Positions 1-10,477 of a stretch of DNA of 10,477 nt are shown here, piece by piece. The translations under genes and the position numbers were made by a program. This DNA is from Promethearchaeia archaeon (GTDB lineage Archaea > Asgardarchaeota > Lokiarchaeia > Sigyniarchaeales > SOKP01). Location: contig JAHQWJ010000013.1 of NCBI GenBank assembly GCA_029856125.1, positions 1-10,477 of the forward strand, read 5' to 3'. Within the stretch, counting starts at the first letter, position 1, and each line of letters starts with the position of its first letter. The notes below the pieces were generated by a model. The model was not told where the DNA came from, searched no databases, and saw nothing but the letters and a program-made list of their open reading frames with translations.

Positions 1-2
1 TT

Positions 3-1700
3 ATTAAAGCAAAAGAAAAGGGCATAAAAGTTATTGTAATTGATCCTAGATATACAGATACCGCCTTAACAGTAGCAGATCAATGGATTCCAATAATTCC
101 TGGAACAGATGTTGCGATGATGGCTGCTATGGCTTATGTAATGATAAAAGAAAATCTTCATGATCAAGAATTTCTTGATAAATATACTCATGGCTTTGAC
201 AAGTATAAAGCTTATGTAATGGGTGATGAAGATGGTATACCAAAAACCCCAGAATGGGCTGAAAAGATTTGTGGTGTAAAAGCTTCCACTATTTTAGCAT
301 TGACCAGAGAATATGCTACCACAAAACCTGCTGCTTTAGAAGACGCTCAAGGTCCAGCAAGATCCTATATGGGTGGACAATATAACCGCGCAGCTATTAC
401 TTTATCTGCGATGACAGGAAACATAGGAAAATCTGGAGGAAGCGCTTGTGGGGGTCTTCATGGAATCCCATATGGACATATGTTCAGAACGATTGCAATT
501 CCTCCTGGTGTTAATAAAGCCTACCCCAAAGGTCCTTCTTTAAGGGGTAATATTAATCCAAGAGATCGTCTAGGCACAAGAGTGCACGTTAATAAAGTAT
601 TTGATGCAATTCTCAAAGGAAAGGCTGGTGGTTATCCTTTTGACGCTAAGTTTGCTATGTTTTTTCAATGTGATTTTGTAAACCAGATAGGAAACGCAAA
701 CCTTTCAAGGAAAGCCATGCAAAGAGAGGATTTGTTTACCGTAGTTCCTGAACTTTGGTTAACGCCTACTGCCCAATATGCTGATATAGTTCTTCCAGTC
801 GCGAGTTTTGCAGCTAGAAGTGATCTCACTAGACCGTGGCCTTCAGGGCCATATTTTGGTCATATGAATAAAGCAATTGAGCCAATTGGAGAATGTAAAG
901 ACGATATAAGGATTGCTGAGGAACTGGCAAAACGGTTAGGTATCGAAAACTTCGAACTAGAAACTGTTTTTAACGAATTTTTAAAAGCGACACGTAAGAG
1001 TGCAAAAGAAGAGATTGATGGATATGACACAATTGAAGAAAAAATGTTACGTGTGTTTACATTAGTCGCTCCCGATTTAAAAGAACACATAAAAGACTAT
1101 AAGAAGTATAAAGCAGAGGGTATATATAGAATTGATACCAAAGAGCCCTATATCGCATTTAAAAAGAATATCGAGGATTTTGAGAATAATCCTTTTCCAA
1201 CACCATCAGGAAAGATCGAAATTTTCTCAGATCAAATTGCTAGTTGGAATAACCCAATGTGTCCCGCTATTCCAAAATATGTTCCTACTTGGGAAAATCG
1301 TGATGATCCTCTAGCAGAGAAATATCCTCTTCAATTTCTAAGTTTTCATCCTCGACATGCAGTTCACTCAGAATTACAAAAAGTTGAATGGTTAAAAGAA
1401 ATTGGATTACATAGGATCTGGATAAACCCTGTTGATGCTGAGGAAAGAAAAATCCGAGATGGAGATATAGTGTTAGTCTTTAATGAACGTGGAACAATTT
1501 CGATTAATGCATGGGTGACAAAAAGAATTATTCCTGGTGTAGTCGCAATGCCAGAAGGGGCGTGGTATGATCCTGATGAAGAAGGGATTGATAGAGGTGG
1601 GTGTGCAAATACTTTGACTAAGGACGCTATGAGCGAGGGGGGTGCTGCGGCATTAAAGACGTGTTTAGTTCAAGTTAAATTAGAGAAGGAGGGTGCCTAA
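3..1700 (+). CDS. dmsA: DMSO reductase family molybdopterin (bis-MGD) oxidoreductase catalytic subunit, DmsA/YnfE-like; 5' part lies outside the window
   Basis: The frame of ORF 117..1700 is open back to position 3 (IKAKEKGIKVIVIDPRYTDTALTVADQWIPIIPGTDVAMM), so ATG117 is internal. Family motifs: IDPRYTDTA, WIPIIPGTD, PKTPEWAEKICGV, MTGNIGKSGG, TPTAQYADIVLP, FPTPSGKIEIFS, KYPLQ..HPRHAVHS, WINPVDAEERKI, GAWY...DRGGCANTLT. Collinear with the paralog at 6606..8918. The substrate cannot be determined from sequence. Confidence 0.9.
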   Translation: MKAKEKGIKVIVIDPRYTDTALTVADQWIPIIPGTDVAMMAAMAYVMIKENLHDQEFLDKYTHGFDKYKAYVMGDEDGIPKTPEWAEKICGVKASTILALTREYATTKPAALEDAQGPARSYMGGQYNRAAITLSAMTGNIGKSGGSACGGLHGIPYGHMFRTIAIPPGVNKAYPKGPSLRGNINPRDRLGTRVHVNKVFDAILKGKAGGYPFDAKFAMFFQCDFVNQIGNANLSRKAMQREDLFTVVPELWLTPTAQYADIVLPVASFAARSDLTRPWPSGPYFGHMNKAIEPIGECKDDIRIAEELAKRLGIENFELETVFNEFLKATRKSAKEEIDGYDTIEEKMLRVFTLVAPDLKEHIKDYKKYKAEGIYRIDTKEPYIAFKKNIEDFENNPFPTPSGKIEIFSDQIASWNNPMCPAIPKYVPTWENRDDPLAEKYPLQFLSFHPRHAVHSELQKVEWLKEIGLHRIWINPVDAEERKIRDGDIVLVFNERGTISINAWVTKRIIPGVVAMPEGAWYDPDEEGIDRGGCANTLTKDAMSEGGAAALKTCLVQVKLEKEGA

Positions 1701-3702
1701 ATTGCAAGTTGGATTCTACTTTGATCAATCACGATGTGCTGGATGTCATGCATGTAGAATAGCATGTAAAGATTGGCACGATGTACCAGCGGGTCCCGCT
1801 TCATGGATGAGGATCAATTATCATGAGGAAGGTCCTTTCCCAGACATCTTTTGTAGCTATTTGATTTCACCTTGCTATCATTGCGAAGAACCCGTATGTT
1901 CTTTTGTTTGCCCTAATGAGGCCATAACTAAACGAGAAAACGATGGGATCGTAGTAATTGATCAAGATAAATGTCGTGAGGAACACCATTGCGGTATTAT
2001 TTCAAAAGAAAAAATGGGCCCAAATTTCCTATATGGGGAAACACAAGCACCTTGTCAAATTGCATGTCCCGTTCATCTTCATATACCAGCGTATACGACT
2101 CTGATCGCTAATGGTAAGTTTAAGGAATCGTTAGATTTAATCAGGCAAAGAATGCCGTTACCATCGGTTTGTGGTCGAGTGTGTCTTCACCCTTGTGAAG
2201 ATGTATGTAAACGACAAGAAGTAGATCAAGCGATCGCAATCGAATCGCTCAAGGGGTTCGTAGCCGATCATGTTCCTTTAGAAACTCCAAATAAAATTAA
2301 ACAAACTCAATCGGCTAAAGTAGCGATAATAGGCTCTGGACCCGCTGGTCTTTCTGCCGCGTACGATCTAATTAGGTTAGGTTATGAAGTAACTATCTTT
2401 GAGTCTCTACCTTTAGCTGGGGGGATGCTAACCGTTGGAATACCAAACCATCGCCTTCCAAGAGAAATTCTAAAAAAGGATATTGATTACATAAAAGCAT
2501 TGGGAGTAGAAATTAAAATTAATACGCCAATTGATTTGGAAAATGGTATTAATGACCTTTTCAAGCAGGATTATGGCGCAGTTTTAATAGCAATCGGCAA
2601 TCACAGAGGAACCAAACTTAAAATCCCTGGCGTTGAGTTAGATGGCGCTCTAGTTGGGACTTCCTTTATGCGGGATGTTAACCTCGGTAAAGACGTGAAG
2701 ATAGGCAGTAAAGTTATAGTAATCGGGGGCGGAAATGTTGCCATGGATTGTGCTCGTACTGCTCGACGATTAGGTGCTGCAGAAGTAGCGGTCTCCTGTC
2801 TTGAATGTTGTGATGACATGCCTGCAACAGATTCCGAAGTTGAACACGCTCGAGAAGAAGGAATTCAAATTCACGATTCTCATACTTTTACTCGCATTGA
2901 AGGTTATAATGGAAAAGTATCTGGAGTAGGATGCTTAGACATCACCGCATGTACTTTTGACGAAGACGGTCAACCTCAATTTAATATTGTAAACGACGAA
3001 GAACACATTTTAGAAGCTGATACCGTAATATTTGCGATTGGTCAAACTCCAGATTTTTCGAATTCGGGTAAAATTAAAGTAAGCTCTACCGGTACTATCG
3101 AAGCTGATCCCGAAACTCAGTTAATCAACAAAGAGGGTGTATTTGTTGCTGGGGATTGTTTTAGTGGAGTCGCAAGCATCATTGACGCTATAGCCAGTGG
3201 GCAGAATGCAGCTTCGCACATACATCGATTTTTGCAAGGGGATGTGCTTAGAAAAAGACCATCTCCCATGAGTAAAGCAACTGAAGTAGAAGTTGATATC
3301 CCATCAGATATAGTGAAAGCAAATCGCCAACCTATGCCAAATTTACCCCCAACAGAAAGGGTATCTAACTTTAAAGAAGTTGCAATGGGATACAGCCAAG
3401 AAGCTGCGATAGCTGAAGCCAAAAGATGCCTGAATTGTGCGGGACATTTATGTAAGGATGTTTGTCCGTATTCAGCTCCTCAATTTGGTGCCGAAGAAAA
3501 AGCTAAAATGCAAAAATGCAATTTCTGTATTGATAGACATGAAGAAGGAAAACAACCCGTATGCGTCGAATCTTGTTATGCTCGTGCCCTTGATTCAGGA
3601 ACGCTAGAAGAATTAAAAGCTAAGTATGGAGAAATTCAAGAGACTTCAGGATTTGTTTACTCTAAAAAGCTTAAACCAGCTGTAATTTTTAAACCTAAAT
3701 AA
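1693..3702 (+). CDS. Fusion protein: DmsB-like 4x[4Fe-4S] subunit with an internal GltD/NfnB/DsrL-type FAD-dependent NAD(P)H oxidoreductase module
   Basis: GTG start overlaps the dmsA stop by 8 nt and follows GAAGGAG. Residues 1-101 are DmsB-like (GFYFDQSRCAGCHACRIACKDWH; CYHCEEPVCSFVCP; KCREEHHCG). Residues ~118-583 are GltD-like (APCQIACP, CGRVCLHPCEDVCKR, VAIIGSGPAG, GGMLTVGIP..RLP, VIGGGNVAMDCAR, VFVAGD, EAKRCLNC). Residues 587-669 are the DmsB C-terminal half (CKDVCPYSAPQF, KCNFC, PVCVESC, KPAVIFKP). Confidence 0.9.
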   Translation: MPKLQVGFYFDQSRCAGCHACRIACKDWHDVPAGPASWMRINYHEEGPFPDIFCSYLISPCYHCEEPVCSFVCPNEAITKRENDGIVVIDQDKCREEHHCGIISKEKMGPNFLYGETQAPCQIACPVHLHIPAYTTLIANGKFKESLDLIRQRMPLPSVCGRVCLHPCEDVCKRQEVDQAIAIESLKGFVADHVPLETPNKIKQTQSAKVAIIGSGPAGLSAAYDLIRLGYEVTIFESLPLAGGMLTVGIPNHRLPREILKKDIDYIKALGVEIKINTPIDLENGINDLFKQDYGAVLIAIGNHRGTKLKIPGVELDGALVGTSFMRDVNLGKDVKIGSKVIVIGGGNVAMDCARTARRLGAAEVAVSCLECCDDMPATDSEVEHAREEGIQIHDSHTFTRIEGYNGKVSGVGCLDITACTFDEDGQPQFNIVNDEEHILEADTVIFAIGQTPDFSNSGKIKVSSTGTIEADPETQLINKEGVFVAGDCFSGVASIIDAIASGQNAASHIHRFLQGDVLRKRPSPMSKATEVEVDIPSDIVKANRQPMPNLPPTERVSNFKEVAMGYSQEAAIAEAKRCLNCAGHLCKDVCPYSAPQFGAEEKAKMQKCNFCIDRHEEGKQPVCVESCYARALDSGTLEELKAKYGEIQETSGFVYSKKLKPAVIFKPK

Positions 3703-3716
3703 TTATTTTTTCTTTC
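3703..3716 (+). terminator. Putative archaeal-type U-rich terminator after the left operon
   Basis: T-rich tract TTATTTTTTCTTTC immediately after the TAA at 3700-3702; no GC hairpin. Weak evidence in an AT-rich background. Confidence 0.35.
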
Positions 3717-3830
3717 ATTATATTGATAGAATATTTTTTAAAATGGAAAAAAATAGAAAGAAAGCTAAATAAATTAAAAATAATTCAAGAAAACAAATTG
3801 AAATAATTTATAATATTTGGAAGAAAAAAA

Positions 3831-4979
3831 ATGACAGAAACAATAGATCAAGAAACATATAAGAAATATAAAAAAGCAGCTCAGATAATTAATGGAGCAG
3901 GTGGTACGCCTTTAGCCATCGGTGACACTCTTATTAAAATTTTAAGACACATTTTACCTGATGAAGAGGCTCTCAGTTATATAAAATACTTTAAGTCTAA
4001 GACATCCCAAACCATGGTACAATTAAAAGAAACTAGTAGCCAAACTGAAGAGGAAATTCTACCTAACCTTATTAAGTTGGCAAAAGTAGGATTAATTTTT
4101 AACCAACCTAATAGACACGGTGTTGTCGTATACCGGTTAATGCCTTTCATTGATGTTGGTGTCTTTGAATACACATTTATGGGAGTGTTAGAAGATAATG
4201 AAGCAAACAGGGAATTAGCACGATTATATCACGAATTAACGGGAGGACTTAAGGACATATTAAAAAATAATTACGATGCTGTGAAAGCCTTCGTGCAAAA
4301 AAGGGCTCCAGTTGATAGAACTATACCGTACACAATTAATAAAGCTACTGGAAACGAAATCGAAATCGTAATAGACAAAATTCTAGATGTTCCTGAAGAG
4401 AAGATTTTACCAGTTCAAAAAGTAGAAGAACTTGTTGAAAAATTTGATGATATCGCGGTTGGTCATTGCTTTTGTCGCCACCAACAAGATTTATTAGATA
4501 ATCCCTGCAAACAGACGGATATTAGAGAAAATTGCTTTACTTTTGGAAAATCTGCACGCTATACTTCAGAACAGGGATTTACTAGATTAATCTCCAAAGA
4601 GGAAGCTTTAGATATAATAATGAAATCAGATGAGGATGGATTAGTTCATAAAGCTTATCATCCCCATTTTGACACAGCTAGGGATGAAACTAGCTTATGT
4701 ATTTGCTGTAATTGTTGTTGTGGCCAAGCTGGACATGATTCTGTTAATGTCAATGTAACTAAGTATCTTGCTCAAGTTAACCAAGAATCCTGTACTGGGT
4801 GTGGGATATGCGTTGAAAATTGTCATACATTTGCGATGAAACTGAATGAGGATAATGTGGCCGAAGTAGGAGAAAGATGCATTGGTTGCGGCGTTTGTGC
4901 ATATGTGTGTCCAGAACAAGCAATTTCTCTAAAAGAGAACGAAAGAATTGTTAGGTTAATACCTCCTCGACCCGAATAA
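3831..4979 (+). CDS. Cys-rich 4Fe-4S binding protein with a C-terminal 2x[4Fe-4S] ferredoxin domain; function unknown
   Basis: C-terminal CTGCGICVENC and CIGCGVCAYVCP motifs. Central Cys motifs HCFCRH...NPC...ENCFTFG, GLVH and CICCNCCC resemble an uncharacterised Fe-S protein family of anaerobes. The N-terminal region is helical and possibly wHTH-like. Confidence 0.85.
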   Translation: MTETIDQETYKKYKKAAQIINGAGGTPLAIGDTLIKILRHILPDEEALSYIKYFKSKTSQTMVQLKETSSQTEEEILPNLIKLAKVGLIFNQPNRHGVVVYRLMPFIDVGVFEYTFMGVLEDNEANRELARLYHELTGGLKDILKNNYDAVKAFVQKRAPVDRTIPYTINKATGNEIEIVIDKILDVPEEKILPVQKVEELVEKFDDIAVGHCFCRHQQDLLDNPCKQTDIRENCFTFGKSARYTSEQGFTRLISKEEALDIIMKSDEDGLVHKAYHPHFDTARDETSLCICCNCCCGQAGHDSVNVNVTKYLAQVNQESCTGCGICVENCHTFAMKLNEDNVAEVGERCIGCGVCAYVCPEQAISLKENERIVRLIPPRPE

Positions 4980-5059
4980 ATATATTAAAAATAAAACTTG
5001 TTTAATTTTAAATAAAAAGAAGCATCAATTTATTCTTTTTTTTAATTTTTTTAGCTCGA
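4980..5059. terminator. Convergent intergenic region with U-tracts on both strands (likely bidirectional termination)
   Basis: Lies between two convergent stops. Plus strand has TTCTTTTTTTTAATTTTTTT (~5033-5052); AAAAATAAAA (4987-4996) gives a U-tract on the minus strand. Confidence 0.4.
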
Positions 5060-5902
5060 TTAATCAACAATCGCATAAGCGTTTCCGAGTACTACCGGTC
5101 CACGATCTGTTCGCATTTGAATTATGTAGCGTCCGTTATTCTTCCAACCTTCTGTTGTTAGGGTTTCTCCTGGGTACACTTCACTCGTAAACCTTGCTTT
5201 GAATTCTTTGAACCGAGTAACATCTCCATTGCAAAGACCATAAACTATTGCTCGCGTGGCATAACCATAGGTACAGAGCCCGTGAAGAATTGGCTTAGTA
5301 AATTTTCCACTTCCCTTAGCAAATTCAGGGTCAATATGTAACGGGTTTAAATCTTGGTTTAATCTATATATGGCAGCTTGATTTTCGTTAGTTTTATAAG
5401 ATATACTAAAATCAGGTTTAACCCCTTCGGGAGGATTTAGCGGTTCTGCTTTCGGTCCACTTTCTCCTCCAAAACCCCCTTCACCAATATAGAAATGAAC
5501 GTATTTAGCATCAAACACATTAGTACCATCAGCAGTTTTACCTGTCATTTTCGTATGAACAACTGCTGCTTTTCCTTTATCAAAGATATTTTCAACTACT
5601 CCTACTACTTTTATTTCGCCCGCTTTAGGGAAAGGTTGATAAAGTTTAATCATTTGTTCTCCATGAATAAACCGAGACCCATCAATTCCCTTCTTACTTA
5701 ATCTTGGGAACCCAAATCCCCCAACAATGCAAGCGTAACTAGGGAAAACTTTTAAACCCCCTTTAGCTCCTTCATAAACAAATGCTAACTCGTCAGGTTG
5801 AGCCCCAATCCCTAAATTATAAAGTACTACGTCTTTCCAAGTATATGTAAAAGTCCTCTCATCAGTTTCTTTTCCAATAATCTCTAAATCCAAACTAGTC
5901 AT
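5060..5902 (-). CDS. MaoC-family double hot-dog (R)-specific enoyl-CoA hydratase (MFE-2 hydratase-2-like)
   Basis: YTWKDVVLYNLGIGA, FVYE...VFPSY, IHGEQ, DKGK and GEGGFGG segments; hydratase-2 motif YRLNQDLNPLHIDPEFA with the catalytic Asp/His; PILHGLCTYG. ATG at 5902 is preferred; the ORF track starts at an in-frame GTG at 5911. Confidence 0.88.
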   Translation of the reverse strand: MTSLDLEIIGKETDERTFTYTWKDVVLYNLGIGAQPDELAFVYEGAKGGLKVFPSYACIVGGFGFPRLSKKGIDGSRFIHGEQMIKLYQPFPKAGEIKVVGVVENIFDKGKAAVVHTKMTGKTADGTNVFDAKYVHFYIGEGGFGGESGPKAEPLNPPEGVKPDFSISYKTNENQAAIYRLNQDLNPLHIDPEFAKGSGKFTKPILHGLCTYGYATRAIVYGLCNGDVTRFKEFKARFTSEVYPGETLTTEGWKNNGRYIIQMRTDRGPVVLGNAYAIVD

Positions 5903-5930
5903 TTTTACCACATGTTAAATTTACATATTA

Positions 5931-5950
5931 CATTTAAATAATTTTTTTTA
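5931..5950 (-). promoter_or_regulatory. Putative archaeal BRE/TATA promoter of the hydratase gene
   Basis: The minus strand reads AAAAAAAAT-TATTTAAATG, a purine-rich run followed by a TTTAAA box about 30 bp upstream of ATG5902. Confidence 0.4.
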
Positions 5951-5997
5951 ATTAATTTATATTTCTAATAGTTTATTAATTATTTCAATTCTATATT

Positions 5998-6016
5998 AAA
6001 AATAAGAAATTTCTTA
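5998..6016 (-). terminator. Putative terminator of the right dmsAB operon
   Basis: Perfect 14-bp palindrome TAAGAAATTTCTTA (6003-6016) followed on the minus strand by TTTTT, about 30 nt after the dmsB stop. Could instead be an operator for the hydratase gene. Confidence 0.35.
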
Positions 6017-6045
6017 CATCTCAGGGTTAATTAGGATAAAACAAG

Positions 6046-6609
6046 TTATTTAGTTCTTCTTGGTTTAAAAATGATAGAAGGTTTTATTTTATCATTATTA
6101 AGAAATCCTTCAGCTTCAACAATGCCCCCATATTTTTCTTGTAATTGTTCCATTGTCCCAACATCAAGAGCGTACATAGGACACGCTTCTACACATATTG
6201 TTTGTTGACCTTTCTCCAACCGTTCAAGACAAAGATCACATTTTTCCATTTTAGAATTTATTTCGTTGCTGAACTGTGGGGAATTCCAAGGGCAAACTTT
6301 TAAGCATTTAAACCCACATTCGTCCTTTCCAATACATTTTTCGCTGTCGACCACCACTATTCCATCTTTTTCCCTTTTTATTATAGCGCTTGTAGGACAC
6401 GCCTTCACACACGGGGGATCAGCACAGTGGTTGCACGCAATAGTTAAGTACGTTAGGAATAACTTAGGAAACTCTCCTTTTTCAATTGAATTAACTCTTA
6501 TCCAATTTATTGGTCCAGCAGGTATATCGTGCCAATCTTTGCAGGCTACCGCACAGGTAAAACAACCAGTGCACCGTGTTTGATCAAAATAAAATCCAAT
6601 TTGAGTCAT
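6046..6609 (-). CDS. dmsB: DMSO reductase family iron-sulfur subunit, DmsB-like (4x[4Fe-4S])
   Basis: Four Cys groups: CTGCFTCAVAC, CNHCADPPCVKACP, CIGKDECGFKCLKVCP, CDLC...CVEACP. N-terminus QIGFYFDQTRC and C-terminus KPSIIFKP are typical of DmsB. ATGA overlap with the dmsA stop (6606-6609) implies translational coupling. Confidence 0.92.
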   Translation of the reverse strand: MTQIGFYFDQTRCTGCFTCAVACKDWHDIPAGPINWIRVNSIEKGEFPKLFLTYLTIACNHCADPPCVKACPTSAIIKREKDGIVVVDSEKCIGKDECGFKCLKVCPWNSPQFSNEINSKMEKCDLCLERLEKGQQTICVEACPMYALDVGTMEQLQEKYGGIVEAEGFLNNDKIKPSIIFKPRRTK

Positions 6610-8918
6610 AAGTTCCCCTCTAATTGTTCTTTTTGATATAATTCTACCTCTACCAATGAGCTATTTAAAGGAAAGGCTCCTCCTGGTGAGTAACTATCCT
6701 TCGTTAAAACATTAGCACAGCCTCCAAGATCAACGGAGTCTTTATTCGGTTTGTACCACGCTCCTTGATAAACACATACTACTCCTGGACTAATCCTTTC
6801 TGTGACTTTCGCAGGAATTCTTAATCTACCTCGATCGTTATAAACGTCTACTAAATCTCTATTTTTTATTTTACGGATGGAGGCATCAGTTGGATTAATC
6901 CAAGCCGAATGTGGCTCTATTTCTTCCAACCACGGAATATTATGGAGGGATGAGTGAGTGCGCCTTTTATTATGAGGTGTGATTAATTGTAATGGGTACT
7001 TTTCTGCTAAAGGAGAATCGTAATGCTCGCTATGACTAAAATATTTAGGAATAGCTGGCATAAGTGGATCGTTCTTCTCTGCTATGTGTTCACAATAGAT
7101 TTCAATTTTTCCCGATAAAGTTGGAAAAGGAGTATTTTCTGGATCGTCAATATGTTTTTTAAAAGCAACAAAGGGCTCTTCCACTTTAACCTTACAATAC
7201 CCTTCCTTTTTCATTTTATTGTAGTTTTTTATATCTTTTCGAGGAGATGCAAATATTCGTAAAATCTGGTCTTCAGGTAAGTAAAGAAGGCTCGTTTTGA
7301 TTCCAAGCTTCTTAGAGAGCTCCCGACATATTTCTAAATCAGATTTAGTTTCGTAAAGTGAATCGATCGCTTTGTTCAGGTAAATATAATACGGTGATCC
7401 AAGCCAAGGAACTGCAATATCATCTCTTTCCATAAATGTGTTAGCTGGTAAGATAATATCTGCAAATTTAGCAGTTGGATTCATAAATTGCTCGTGAGTA
7501 ACTATAAATTCTAGCGATTTTAAAGCTTTTACTCCTTTATTTACGTTACCGTATTGATTAAGGCGATTTGTACCACATATATAAGCCATTTTTATATCTG
7601 CAGGATAACCTCCTTTAGTCCCTTGTAAAATTAAATTGTAATAATCGTTAAAATGTACTCGTGTACTTGCTGGATTTGTTCCACCTCGAAGTTTAAATAG
7701 CGCATCTTTACGAGGTGGAGCGTTAAAGTCAACAAGATTATCTTGAGGTCTAGGCTTTTTGGGTTTTAAAGTTTCGTCGGTTTGTTTAATAGGGCCTTCT
7801 TTCTTTTTACCTGTTGAACTTACGCTCTCTCGGCTAGAATATGCCCTCATAAAACCAGAAGCATAACCTCCATTAATTCCAATGTTACCGGTAATTGCAC
7901 ATAAAACGTTAGCCGCCCTCGAATATTGCTCGCCAAATGCTGCTCTCGCAGGTCCCCAACCCGCGATAAGGGCTGCTGGTTTACTAGTAGCATATTCACG
8001 CGCTAGGTCTATGATTGTTTTTTCTGGCACAGTAGTAATCTCTTCTGCCCATCGAGGTGTTTTTGGTTGCCCGTCTTCGCGACCAAGCACATAATCTTTG
8101 TAAGCGTCATATCCTACAGTATATTTGTCGATAAATAGTTGGTTTTGGAGATTTTCAGTTATTATTACATTAGCCATTGCTATCAACATCGCAGTATCAG
8201 TACCCGGGCGGATGGGTATCCAATCATCTGCTAATACAGCTGCTGAATCCGTAAAAATGGGGTCAACAGCTATTATTTTAATTCCTTTTTCTCGAGCTTT
8301 AGCCAGCCATAAACTTGTTCCAGGATCCCACACTGTATTGGCAGGATTCCATCCCCACATAATTATTAAATTAGAATTAAGTAAATCGTCACGAGCGTTT
8401 CCCGTCATCATAGTCCCATATGTTGCCATCGAGGCAAAAAGAGCTCCTTCATACGAAGGTATCCCCCAATGGCGAGTATAACCCCCAATTTGGTTTAACA
8501 TCAAACCAACGGGTGTAACACCATGGAGCATCCCTTGATTTCCACCCCCAGGGACGAATAATATTGCGGAATTACCATACTTCTCTTTTATATCTAAAAT
8601 TTTTGAAGCTACATGGTTTAAAGCTTCTTCCCACGAAATTCTTTCGAATTTACCTTCACCACGTTCTCCAACGCGTCGCAGAGGATATTTTAGCCTTTCT
8701 TCAGAATATACGCGTTGTCTATACGCTCTCCCTCGTGAACACGCCCTTAACTGTGGTTCTTTTTCATTATCTGTTTCGATTCGCGTAATCTTTCCATTTT
8801 TTACATGAACTTTAAGGACACATCTTCCTCCACAATCATGACAACATCCCGTATTTATAATTTTTTCAGAATCCTCATCCATATCTGCTTTATCATTTAT
8901 CACTTTAGTTACCAGCAA
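6606..8918 (-). CDS. dmsA: DMSO reductase family molybdopterin oxidoreductase catalytic subunit, DmsA/YnfE-like, no Tat signal
   Basis: N-terminal FS0 motif CCHDCGGRC...LRACSRG; RLKYPLRRVGERGEGKFERISWEEA; GGYTRHWGIPSYEG (Ser codon at 8454-8456, equivalent to the Mo-ligand segment of E. coli DmsA as I recall it); WGWNP; GWGPAR; TAKFADIILP; SGKIEIY; RTHS; GAWY. The start is uncertain: TTG 8918, GTG 8903 or ATG 8882. Confidence 0.92.
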   Translation of the reverse strand: MLVTKVINDKADMDEDSEKIINTGCCHDCGGRCVLKVHVKNGKITRIETDNEKEPQLRACSRGRAYRQRVYSEERLKYPLRRVGERGEGKFERISWEEALNHVASKILDIKEKYGNSAILFVPGGGNQGMLHGVTPVGLMLNQIGGYTRHWGIPSYEGALFASMATYGTMMTGNARDDLLNSNLIIMWGWNPANTVWDPGTSLWLAKAREKGIKIIAVDPIFTDSAAVLADDWIPIRPGTDTAMLIAMANVIITENLQNQLFIDKYTVGYDAYKDYVLGREDGQPKTPRWAEEITTVPEKTIIDLAREYATSKPAALIAGWGPARAAFGEQYSRAANVLCAITGNIGINGGYASGFMRAYSSRESVSSTGKKKEGPIKQTDETLKPKKPRPQDNLVDFNAPPRKDALFKLRGGTNPASTRVHFNDYYNLILQGTKGGYPADIKMAYICGTNRLNQYGNVNKGVKALKSLEFIVTHEQFMNPTAKFADIILPANTFMERDDIAVPWLGSPYYIYLNKAIDSLYETKSDLEICRELSKKLGIKTSLLYLPEDQILRIFASPRKDIKNYNKMKKEGYCKVKVEEPFVAFKKHIDDPENTPFPTLSGKIEIYCEHIAEKNDPLMPAIPKYFSHSEHYDSPLAEKYPLQLITPHNKRRTHSSLHNIPWLEEIEPHSAWINPTDASIRKIKNRDLVDVYNDRGRLRIPAKVTERISPGVVCVYQGAWYKPNKDSVDLGGCANVLTKDSYSPGGAFPLNSSLVEVELYQKEQLEGNL

Positions 8919-8962
8919 ATTTGTTTTAATTCTAATTATGAAAAATTTATTCTATTCAGATA

Positions 8963-10267
8963 TTATTGAAATCCGATTAGATATATTAACCCCTCAGGAA
9001 GGTAGGTCTGCCAAGCAATGTATTCGTGCCCTCCAGGGTATTCCTTATAAAAATGGGTATATCCTTTTTTTTGAAGCATTTTATGAAAATTTCGAATAGG
9101 CTTGATTGCTCTTGTTTCGAGATTACCTACGTTCAAATAAAATTTCAAATTTAATCTTTCATTTTGTAAATATTGTTTTGTAAGCCACTCTTCTTCTTTT
9201 TCTTCTTCTTTACTCCACCAACGTACAAAGTCATCTCCAAAAAACTTTTGACTATACTGAAACCAGTTAATACCGGGATACCACTCGTAATAACCCGATT
9301 GTGAAAGAATATTCGTGAACATTTCGGGGTGTTTGAATCCAATAAAAGAAGCTGCTAAACCTCCAGAACTACTACCAACTAATACTGAGTGTGCGGGGTT
9401 AGAGCTAATATTATAATTCTCATGAGCCCACGGTACTAACTCTTTAGCAATGAAATCTGCAAATTGTGGATAACAAAGTAAATCTTTTCCTCTACTATAC
9501 CCACTGTAATTATGAATAAATATAGCAATACATGGCGGAATTTTATTTTCAGCTTGTAAATTATCCAAAATTTGTGGTGCTTTGGTAAAATCAATAAATG
9601 CCTTTCCATCAAAAACAATTAGTAAATGCATTGGCTTATCATTTGAATCAAAATTATTTGGAGTATATATCCACACTTTTCTCTTTGAATTTAGAATATT
9701 ACTATGGAAATCCATAGCATTCAAATTACCAGGGATTATGTTCTTTTTTTGTTCTACCCATTCGACAGATTTCACACCTGTAGTTTCAAGCACAGAGTAT
9801 TCAACAACAAATTTCTGCCCCTCTCTCCTATATCTCTGCGTAAATCTTTTTGGATTATGTGGATCAGGTGCTAAAGTATCCCAATTGTCCATTAAATTGT
9901 CATAAAACCTGTGAAATTTAAGTGAGTTGTTTTTGCTAATTGTATAGATTGTTCGTGTTCCATTCAGAACTACAAAACTCTTATAAAAAACATCTGTATC
10001 TTCAATTCGCTCACAAATATTATTCGATACCATATCATCTTGATCGGCAAGCGAACAAATTATAATCGCATTTTTAGTCTCTTTATCAGCTTGAATAATA
10101 AAAGTTACAAGTTTATGGTTTTTATCCTCGCCTACTGGTTCAATTAAGGGAGTACCGATTCTTTTTATTTTAATCCAGAAATTCTTAAGCGCTGAATTTT
10201 GTCCATTTGCTAATTCTTTTTTAAGCTCTAAAATTGTAGGACTTGTTAAATTCTTCATTTTTTCCAT
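8963..10267 (-). CDS. Enterochelin esterase (Fes)-like alpha/beta hydrolase with N-terminal DUF3327-like domain
   Basis: N-terminal FW...GTPLIE...VTF and DPHNP segments; SNILNSKRKVWIYTP; LLIVFDG; ILDNL...KIPP; FIAKELVPW; nucleophile elbow GSSSGG (9359-9376); SQSG; VGNLE; EYPGGHEY (catalytic His). A siderophore substrate is not established. Confidence 0.85.
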   Translation of the reverse strand: MEKMKNLTSPTILELKKELANGQNSALKNFWIKIKRIGTPLIEPVGEDKNHKLVTFIIQADKETKNAIIICSLADQDDMVSNNICERIEDTDVFYKSFVVLNGTRTIYTISKNNSLKFHRFYDNLMDNWDTLAPDPHNPKRFTQRYRREGQKFVVEYSVLETTGVKSVEWVEQKKNIIPGNLNAMDFHSNILNSKRKVWIYTPNNFDSNDKPMHLLIVFDGKAFIDFTKAPQILDNLQAENKIPPCIAIFIHNYSGYSRGKDLLCYPQFADFIAKELVPWAHENYNISSNPAHSVLVGSSSGGLAASFIGFKHPEMFTNILSQSGYYEWYPGINWFQYSQKFFGDDFVRWWSKEEEKEEEWLTKQYLQNERLNLKFYLNVGNLETRAIKPIRNFHKMLQKKGYTHFYKEYPGGHEYIAWQTYLPEGLIYLIGFQ

Positions 10268-10290
10268 TGTTTAAATTTAATTGTGAATTT

Positions 10291-10300
10291 CATATAAAAC
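10291..10300 (-). promoter_or_regulatory. Putative TATA box of the esterase gene (leaderless or short-leader transcript)
   Basis: Minus strand GTTTTATATG ending ~25 bp upstream of ATG10267; no Shine-Dalgarno sequence before the start. Confidence 0.4.
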
Positions 10301-10376
10301 CTTAGTAAAGTCTTAAAACGATTTGTTTATAATGGAATTAGTCATTTGATAGTGAAAATTTTATAAATACTTCATG

Positions 10377-10440
10377 ATATGATCAATGATCACATTTAAA
10401 TAGGGTAGTTGATATATGATCATATGATCAATAATCATAT
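10377..10440 (+). promoter_or_regulatory. Promoter with a TATA box (TTTAAATA, 10395-10402) flanked by two 19-bp palindromic operator-like sites
   Basis: ATATGATCAATGATCACAT (10377-10395) and ATATGATCAATAATCATAT (10422-10440) are 17/19 identical. Each is one mismatch from the perfect 9-1-9 palindrome ATATGATCA-N-TGATCATAT. A perfect 14-mer palindrome TGATCATATGATCA (10417-10430) overlaps the second site. Confidence 0.65.
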
Positions 10441-10451
10441 GGAGAAAAATT

Positions 10452-10477
10452 ATGGAAGAATTTAGAGATAAAGATCC
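10452..10477 (+). CDS. 5' end of a gene running off the window (MEEFRDKD...), product unknown
   Basis: ATG at 10452 preceded by GGAG (10441-10444) and an upstream TATA box; the frame is open to the window end. Only 8 full codons are visible. Confidence 0.5.

Follow-up and report, generated by a model that had tools for sequence, protein, structure and literature searches.

A DmsB-type iron–sulfur (Fe-S) subunit whose third cysteine group is split by a GltD-type flavoprotein cassette was found in the genome of a Promethearchaeia archaeon (assembly GCA_029856125.1, contig JAHQWJ010000013.1, positions 1 to 10,477 of the forward strand; this whole stretch of 10,477 nucleotides (nt) is referred to as the window). 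The gene lies at 1693-3702, immediately downstream of a DmsA-like gene at 3-1700. Together, the two genes likely encode a two-subunit, soluble, cytoplasmic reductase of the DmsA/YnfE type, with a molybdenum (or tungsten) bis-molybdopterin guanine dinucleotide (Mo/W bis-MGD) site fed by NAD(P)H. DmsB-bearing enzymes of the dimethyl sulfoxide (DMSO) reductase family are usually regarded as respiratory complexes linked to quinol. In the enzyme proposed here, the input end of the electron wire would be rebuilt by a flavoprotein nested exactly at the place where the membrane anchor usually docks.

DmsB is interrupted within its third cysteine group

The frame 1693-3702 on the forward strand is free of stop codons and translates into 669 amino acids (aa); residues of the fused protein are counted from GTG 1693. 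The gene probably starts at TTG 1702 instead, giving 666 aa. GTG 1693 falls within the ribosome-binding site of the gene, with GGAGG at 1688-1692 and a 9-nt spacing to TTG 1702, which lies 1 nt past the DmsA stop codon (TAA, 1698-1700). Moreover, a start at TTG 1702 gives the consensus N-terminus of the homologs, MQxGFYFDQ.

The window also encodes a plain, uninterrupted DmsB paralog, which served as the comparator (Table 1). In BLASTP, residues 5-102 of the fused protein matched residues 3-100 of the plain DmsB (56% identity, E 8e-41) and residues 584-669 matched 99-184 (50% identity, E 6e-29). The two blocks were collinear and covered the plain DmsB from end to end, with ~483 residues interposed in the fused protein. 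A sequence-only reading of the window had described this two-part alignment and had taken it for a domain insertion inside the third cysteine group, not an end-to-end fusion. Both points were borne out. The break is located between C100 and C587, the second and third Cys of DmsB group III. The codons of the four cysteines around it lie where they had been placed, at nt 1972-1974 (C94), 1990-1992 (C100), 3451-3453 (C587) and 3463-3465 (C591).

The N-terminal half contains group I (C15, C18, C21, C25), group II (C61, C64, C69, C73) and the start of group III (C94, C100), and the C-terminal half contains the end of group III (C587, C591) and group IV (C609, C612, C624, C628). Groups I, II and IV are intact, and group III is present though split. 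The 16 DmsB cysteines, all of which had been counted as retained, and 8 GltD-type cysteines were invariant in 108/108 full-length homologs at ≥60% identity. By count, these 24 conserved Cys are enough for six predicted [4Fe-4S] clusters. With the flavin adenine dinucleotide (FAD) domain and the pyridine-nucleotide domain, they agree with the earlier proposal of about six clusters and FAD in one polypeptide.

The domain mapping that the sequence-only reading had called for was carried out with Pfam and NCBIfam, and returned the DmsB parts, Fer4_20 and Pyr_redox_2. The best NCBIfam matches of the fused protein were GltD-like models, plus TIGR02951 (DmsB) in two pieces. These two stretches scored 144.9 bits with TIGR02951, not reaching its curated equivalog cut-off of 214.1, and the uninterrupted paralog was also under this cut-off (176.5 bits). 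The PRK12814 and PRK12771 models, which describe GltD-like flavoprotein subunits of the SfrB kind, matched residues 113-610 with scores far under the model cut-offs. Fold and Cys pattern mark the fused protein as a DmsB, though it stays under the equivalog cut-offs.

Table 1. Features of the window, with positions in nucleotides and residue numbers (res) counted from GTG 1693 for the fused protein.
Feature	Position	Strand	Evidence or remark
C-terminal 565 aa of the DmsA-like catalytic subunit (Mo/W bis-MGD)	3..1700	+	Pfam Molybdopterin and Molydop_binding
Fused beta subunit: DmsB N-half, permuted GltD cassette, DmsB C-half	1693..3702	+	669 aa from GTG 1693
DmsB N-half, res 5-101	1705..1995	+	TIGR02951 match 5-100
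Inserted flavoprotein cassette, res 102-583	1996..3441	+	phmmer to StnC, VIA superposition
GltD-type Fe-S domain (Fer4_20), res 118-194	2044..2274	+	Pfam PF14691, E 1.5e-25
Rossmann domains for FAD and NAD(P), res 209-503	2317..3201	+	Pyr_redox_2 PF07992, E 3e-35, full profile
C369-L370-E371, in place of the Y-R-R motif for the 2'-phosphate of NADPH	2797..2805	+	HMMER alignments to 9bov, 8oh5, 9n5u, 4ylf
Permuted leader helix and RC579xxC582, res 542-582	3316..3438	+	equivalent to NfnB/GltD N-terminus
DmsB C-half, res 584-669	3442..3699	+	Fer4_11 match 575-636 (Pfam)
382-aa protein, C-terminal 2x[4Fe-4S] ferredoxin domain	3831..4979	+	Pfam Fer4 316-371 only
Plain DmsB paralog, 187 aa, comparator; group III C-x5-C-x3-C-x3-CP	6046..6609	-	
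Plain DmsA paralog, 770 aa, Tat-less, canonical C-x3-C-x3-C FS0	6606..8918	-	

The insert is a circularly permuted GltD cassette

The insert had been described as a whole NAD(P)H:flavin oxidoreductase module. The Fer4_20, FAD and NAD(P) domains were all found, but their order is permuted and not canonical. In HMMER alignments, residues 120-517 corresponded to NfnB 46-462 and residues 542-592 to NfnB (4ylf_B) 2-52, showing that the order of the two segments is swapped. The leader helix and the RCxxC motif are found at the C-terminal end of the insert, four residues before the DmsB C587. The Cys residues of the Fer4_20 domain are C121, C125, C160, C164, C168 and C172. Glycine motifs are present at 214-219 (GSGPAG) and 345-350 (GGGNVA); G214, G216, G345 and G347 are invariant, and so are E575, R578, C579 and C582 in the family alignment. 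Phmmer aligned residues 115-589 with residues 98-569 of StnC (8oh5_C, E 1e-90) and also matched 9bov_A (E 3e-101). As judged from these alignments, the insert is a recurrent, circularly permuted GltD cassette with the order found in StnC and NfnA, and not a canonical GltD.

NfnB, StnC and NfnA carry Y-R-R after the second Rossmann beta2 strand, where the fused protein has C-L-E. L370 and E371 were present in 113/115 family members, the exceptions being P0128 (YRR) and P0123 (FRK). By the general rule for Rossmann domains, the replacement of YRR by CLE predicts a preference for NADH over NADPH, and the nucleotide donor is probably NADH. The CLE and YRR variants provide a natural test of nucleotide specificity.

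Other GltD-cassette proteins are encoded in the same genome, in frames of 497-930 aa (C112:10618-12054, C9:58436-59896, C112:14182-15438 and C98:150-707), and relatives in the same family carry cassette-bearing frames of ~845, 925 and 1650 aa. Within the lineage, the cassette recurs in many hosts.

The DmsB halves are predicted to reassemble around the cassette

An AlphaFold2 model of the fused protein was built on a 115-sequence alignment (predicted local distance difference test score, pLDDT, 90.9; predicted template modelling score, pTM, 0.91) and was compared with known structures by VIA, an exhaustive structure search tolerating non-sequential matches. DmsB-type chains superposed over the model range 3-669, with 172-178 of ~186 DmsB residues matched, Z 17.4-20.6 and a root-mean-square deviation (rmsd) of 1.8-2.6 Å overall. 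The chains were PsrB (2vpw_B; Z 20.6, rmsd 2.2 Å), ArrB (6cz7_B; Z 19.9, rmsd 1.8 Å), the beta subunit of transhydroxylase (Z 17.9), PcrB (Z 17.7), the beta subunit of tungsten formate dehydrogenase (W-FDH; Z 17.7) and FdnH (Z 17.4). StnC superposed over the model range 114-591 (Z 47.4, rmsd 2.3 Å over 469 residues), and NfnB and GltD gave Z 38.1 and Z 33.1. Foldseek against the PDB matched only the GltD part; the likeness to DmsB was seen only by VIA. According to the model, the two DmsB halves come back together as a single four-cluster domain, from which the cassette emerges as an excursion. This prediction leans on homology, and it is the outcome for which the sequence-only reading had proposed a model of the protein alone.

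The two neighboring clusters at the junction could be ligated in two ways. The DmsB cluster is likely to be rebuilt across the insert by C94, C100 and C587 together with C73, and the distal GltD cluster would take C579, C582 and C121. In a swap of ligands, by contrast, the GltD-side cluster would be bound by C94 and C100 along with C121, and the DmsB-side cluster by C579 and C582 along with C587, so that the DmsB motif would be chimeric and not reassembled. The spacing C579-x2-C582-x4-C587-x3-C591-P, which is that of a single GltD-type motif, is in line with such a swap. Two further observations are compatible with the swap: both junction motifs are canonical, contiguous C-x2-C-x2-C-x3-CP in the distant members P0124 and P0132, and the VIA alignments of the NfnB and GltD chains open at model residue 100, facing the CxxC region of these chains. 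However, in the distant member P0133 the Cys pair before the insert is missing and RCxxC is followed by a full CxxCxxCxxxCP, the total still being 24 Cys. Because the complete group III motif after it forces RCxxC onto the GltD cluster in this protein, RCxxC is assigned to the GltD cluster and C94/C100 to the DmsB cluster. The unusual C-x5-C-G is, moreover, common to the fused protein and the plain paralog, and the paralog must use this motif for its own cluster. The leader and RCxxC also align with the N-terminus of NfnB and lie inside the GltD domain as defined in StnC. These results suggest that the ligand swap is unlikely, though it carries some weight. Under either assignment the two junction clusters are tied by a linker of 2-5 residues, which argues from the sequence for their close spacing.

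The partner DmsA lacks a Tat signal and the genome lacks the anchor

The window begins inside the partner DmsA gene. The first 245 aa are encoded on another contig of the same assembly (C35; L011:3-737, minus strand), giving a total of ~768 aa. The end of C35 and the start of the window share an exact, k-mer-sized overlap of 127 bp, indicating that the gene was split by an assembly break. The partial DmsA matched TIGR02166 (dmsA_ynfE) with E 9e-133, under the curated cut-off. Its nearest relatives are TorA/DorA/DmsA-YnfE; one of its Ser residues is aligned with the Ser of TorA that ligates Mo, with GNISS at the Ser-ligand region. No twin-arginine (Tat) motif was found at its N-terminus. The motif of its Fe-S cluster FS0 (residues ~17-27) reads S-x3-C-x3-C...C (TSAFDCGGRC), and that of the DmsA at the fused-gene loci L009 and L010 is alike. 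Ser thus occupies the position of the first FS0 ligand, which is Cys in DmsA and His in NarG and PcrA.

In every locus examined, archaeal and bacterial, a DmsA-like gene abuts or overlaps the fused gene on its upstream side. The loci checked were those of the Dehalococcoidales chromosome CP070842.1, a Promethearchaeota genome, a Lokiarchaeota metagenome-assembled genome (MAG), a JGI contig and the contig of the distant member P0124; no anchor gene was adjacent to the fused gene in five loci. Moreover, neither DmsC (PF04976) nor NrfD (PF03916) was matched in the 99.1%-complete genome, in which the positive controls were detected. The suggestion of the sequence-only reading that the membrane anchor has been replaced fits a genome without DmsC or NrfD and a Tat-less DmsA adjoining the fused gene.

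An unfused counterpart was found in a deltaproteobacterial MAG (CAWJQV010000013.1, locus L038, 1-3235), where three adjacent genes encode a DmsA-like protein, a plain DmsB and, as a protein of its own, a GltD cassette of 719 aa. The plain DmsB appears to be frameshifted in that assembly (frames 548-937 and 679-1050), and the 719-aa protein bears YRR along with ferredoxin motifs of its own at the C-terminus. This counterpart supports a functional link among DmsA, DmsB and GltD.

Proposed electron path and its alternatives

In NarGHI and DmsABC, group III ligates the cluster that is farthest from the catalytic subunit and next to the anchor. Since this cluster faces the quinol-oxidizing anchor, the cassette sits where electrons normally enter. 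In the proposed enzyme, NAD(P)H, probably NADH, would reduce FAD, and electrons would pass through the proximal GltD cluster to the distal one (C579, C582, C121 and one of C160-C172). From there they would enter FS4 of DmsB (C94, C100, C587, C73) and continue through FS3, FS2 and FS1 to FS0 of DmsA and the Mo/W-bisMGD site, where an oxo-transfer substrate would be reduced in the cytoplasm; the most likely candidates are S- and N-oxides. The flavoprotein would take the place of DmsC and the quinone pool, making the enzyme a non-respiratory electron sink for a fermentative anaerobe. This direction and class of substrate are proposed because the nearest relatives of the catalytic subunit are Ser-ligated S- and N-oxide reductases.

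Several points weigh against this proposal. With Ser as the first FS0 ligand, the wire may end in an atypical step, and FS0 of the partner DmsA may be Ser-ligated or a [3Fe-4S] cluster. The substrate of DmsABC is not transferable to the enzyme, because the TIGR02166 and TIGR02951 scores are under their cut-offs. The neighborhood (beta-oxidation-like genes, an esterase, MaoC and TetR) does not point to S- or N-oxides either.

The same chain might run in the oxidative direction, with DmsA oxidizing or hydroxylating a low-potential substrate and the wire reducing NAD(P)+ via FAD, so that the enzyme would be a soluble dehydrogenase. The known substrates of the TorA/DorA/DmsA-YnfE clade have potentials far above that of NAD+/NADH, and NAD+-coupled oxidation of them would be endergonic. 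Furthermore, the catalytic subunit is nearest to this Ser-ligated clade and not to the formate dehydrogenases with Cys or selenocysteine. On the other hand, GltD/NfnB modules are reversible, the nearby beta-oxidation-like genes and esterase come with no S-oxide metabolism, and the NADPH-dependent formate dehydrogenase (FDH) of Moorella, which is nearest in function among Mo/W enzymes that have a GltD-like beta subunit, works near equilibrium (PMC13040438). Taken together, the oxidative direction is considered quite improbable.

It was also considered whether the cassette has an NfnB-type bifurcating FAD, by which reduction of the Mo site would drive the reduction of ferredoxin by NADH, for example via the 382-aa Fer4 protein. 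The transfer of electrons from NADH to an S-oxide releases a large free energy that would otherwise be lost in a soluble enzyme. NfnB, to which the module is homologous, has a bifurcating FAD, and the Fer4 protein is found downstream in close relatives. However, there is a single Fe-S path from FAD, with no NfnA-like or second-exit domain in Pfam; StnC, the closest structural relative, has lost bifurcation; and the Fer4 neighbor is not conserved in L009, L010 and L013. Because there is one Fe-S exit from FAD and StnC does not bifurcate, this mechanism is given very little credence. The chance is likewise low that the nested flavoprotein serves for bifurcation or confurcation, coupling the reduction of a high-potential S- or N-oxide through the DmsB wire to NADH-driven reduction of ferredoxin. 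If it did, Asgard archaea and Dehalococcoidia would gain a soluble, membrane-free means of conserving energy from the reduction of organosulfur compounds or amine oxides. In a weaker version of this idea, the family would be a fermentative electron sink that is widespread, was previously unrecognized and has a new substrate.

If the NADH-fed soluble reductase is the correct description, annotation as 'DMSO reductase' and 'FAD-dependent oxidoreductase' misreads the physiology of lineages that are abundant in sediments, namely Asgard archaea and Dehalococcoidia, and these genes would mark a soluble NADH-reoxidizing sink, not anaerobic respiration. The fused protein itself is predicted to be a compact, single-polypeptide flavo-ferredoxin with six clusters.

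The fused family is conserved and patchily distributed

The sequence-only reading had proposed a search for homologs with the same split, and these turned out to be numerous, the family being conserved in archaea as well as bacteria of sediments. Assemblies from NCBI, JGI, ENA and Logan yielded >100 proteins with the same architecture, which are 661-682 aa long and have 60-91% identity; among the carriers is the closed 2.3-Mb chromosome of Dehalococcoidales (CP070842.1). More distant members (37-57% identity, from 50%-identity clusters) have the same architecture and keep the 24 Cys in number. Proteins of the family are named 'FAD-dependent oxidoreductase' or 'glutamate synthase beta-like' in databases. 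The short 10.5-kb contig, which breaks inside the upstream gene and is a compositional outlier of its bin, could raise the thought of an assembly chimera or a mis-called gene, but misassembly is excluded because >100 independent assemblies (four assembly sources and a closed chromosome) share the architecture and length, 15 further genomes of the family have 670-693-aa frames spanning the N-terminal junction, the 24 Cys are conserved and the predicted fold has high confidence.

In addition, 400 genomes were searched with a query spanning the junction (residues 1-135). Frames of 670-693 aa were detected in 16/134 genomes of the window's family, the window's own genome included, and in none of the 266 genomes that represented other families in the phylum sample, indicating a patchy distribution. 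With the full-length query at E ≤ 1e-150, nothing was found in 200 genomes of the phylum and only cassette paralogs in 60 genomes of the family; these blanks reflect sampling, because the junction query found the 15 further carriers. In a separate search of GTDB genomes for loci with the GltD pattern, no nested DmsB was detected by tblastn among the 80 loci listed. Coverages of '8-582' in those loci were examined as possible nested DmsB and rejected, since they were due to other N-terminal ferredoxin domains.

The Asgard and Chloroflexota copies are 60-65% identical, which suggests that the fused gene was transferred between domains. The contig of the window has a GC content of 36.7%, against a bin mean of 32.7% (standard deviation 1.4), and ranks 105/109 in tetranucleotide distance. 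This outlying composition and the patchy occurrence fit an island acquired by transfer, or else a contig placed in the wrong bin. However, a 90%-identical fused copy is present in a genome from the same genus, with a plain DmsB ~4 kb downstream as in the window.

In a quick maximum-likelihood tree of the DmsB parts, the close fused family (Shimodaira–Hasegawa-like approximate likelihood ratio test, SH-aLRT, 99) and the plain anchor-less DmsB family formed one clade (96), and the distant fused forms were placed outside it on long branches. Read from this tree, either the cassette was inserted repeatedly at the same motif, or the plain DmsB arose by loss of the cassette.

Comparison with known systems

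The StnC and NfnA subunits of the Stn/NfnABC transhydrogenases, solved in 2023-2025 (PDB 8OH5, 9BOV, 9N5U; PMC10482914), are the nearest precedent for the cassette. In StnC, the GltD domain (aa 102-565) is nested in a NuoG-like domain, and electrons run FAD->C7->C6->... into the cluster chain of the host via two [4Fe-4S] clusters, without bifurcation (PMC10482914). StnC and NfnA share with the fused protein a permuted cassette nested in an Fe-S host, in the order of an Fe-S domain from PCxxxCP, the FAD/NAD(P) domains and the leader helix with RCxxC, at 31-38% identity. The hosts differ, however. That of StnC is NuoG-like (a [2Fe-2S] cluster and an inactive FdhF-like domain) with the HydBC-like partners StnAB, whereas here the host is DmsB and the partner DmsA. 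StnC also has YRR (NADPH) and a proximal cluster ligated by Lys and Cys, where the fused protein has CLE and a four-Cys second motif. Membership in the StnC/NfnA family was rejected, since the fused protein has no 2Fe-2S or molybdopterin domain and its neighbors are DmsA, Fer4 and MaoC genes, not StnAB-like ones. The occurrence of one permuted cassette in two unrelated Fe-S hosts, NuoG-like and DmsB, is useful for studies of how redox modules recombine.

Compared with DmsABC/YnfEFGH, PsrABC, NarGHI, FdnGHI and ArrAB, the beta subunit has the same fold and all 16 Cys, and the alpha subunit is DmsA/YnfE-like with Ser at the Mo-ligand position. The differences are the missing Tat signal, the missing DmsC/NrfD anchor, a beta subunit interrupted by 483 residues and Ser as the first FS0 ligand. 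A respiratory complex of the DmsABC type was rejected on the grounds of the anchor and of Tat export.

The NADPH-dependent formate dehydrogenase of Moorella thermoacetica has a GltD-like beta subunit, SfrB2 (PMC13040438). This enzyme and SfrAB of Geobacter resemble the present one in being soluble Mo/W bis-MGD enzymes linked to pyridine nucleotide by a GltD-like flavoprotein. In contrast to the fused protein, their flavoprotein is a separate subunit with terminal Fe-S domains, their catalytic subunit is a formate dehydrogenase and a DmsB fold is lacking. In AegA and YgfT (and YgfK) of E. coli, a HydN/DmsB-like multi-cluster ferredoxin and a GltD-like domain are joined in one polypeptide (PMC8097209). 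In AegA the ferredoxin is followed by GltD end to end, whereas in the fused protein GltD is nested inside the ferredoxin. Membership in the AegA/YgfT group was rejected because of the nested layout and the low scores (242 bits against a cut-off of 1003, and 193 bits against 1154).

The sequence-only reading had known of no characterized enzyme with such an architecture. No paper on a GltD-interrupted DmsB was found in the literature searched, in a search that was not exhaustive, and this part of the claim stands. The novelty is narrower than it implied, however, as a nested cassette is known from StnC and a GltD-like beta subunit is known on a Mo/W enzyme. The family is real and conserved, and its design principle is already known from the nesting in StnC and from the Moorella FDH.

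Neighboring genes

Downstream of the fused gene, the N-terminal ~300 aa of the 382-aa protein have no recognizable family, and its Atlas neighbors are unnamed Fer4 proteins. The gene occupies the same position in the Lokiarchaeota MAG locus (L012). Together with its absence from the loci named above, this makes it a possible accessory protein that is conserved only among close relatives.

The plain DmsB and DmsA paralogs form a second Tat-less, anchor-less DmsAB pair (6046-8918, minus strand). On one side of the pair lies an enterochelin/feruloyl-esterase-like gene (8963-10267), and on the other a gene for a MaoC dehydratase (5060-5911, minus strand). L012 preserves the entire order of eight genes. 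On contig C35, enoyl-CoA hydratases, a 3-hydroxyacyl-CoA dehydrogenase, an SDR protein, a TetR protein and an NMO-family gene are found upstream of DmsA.

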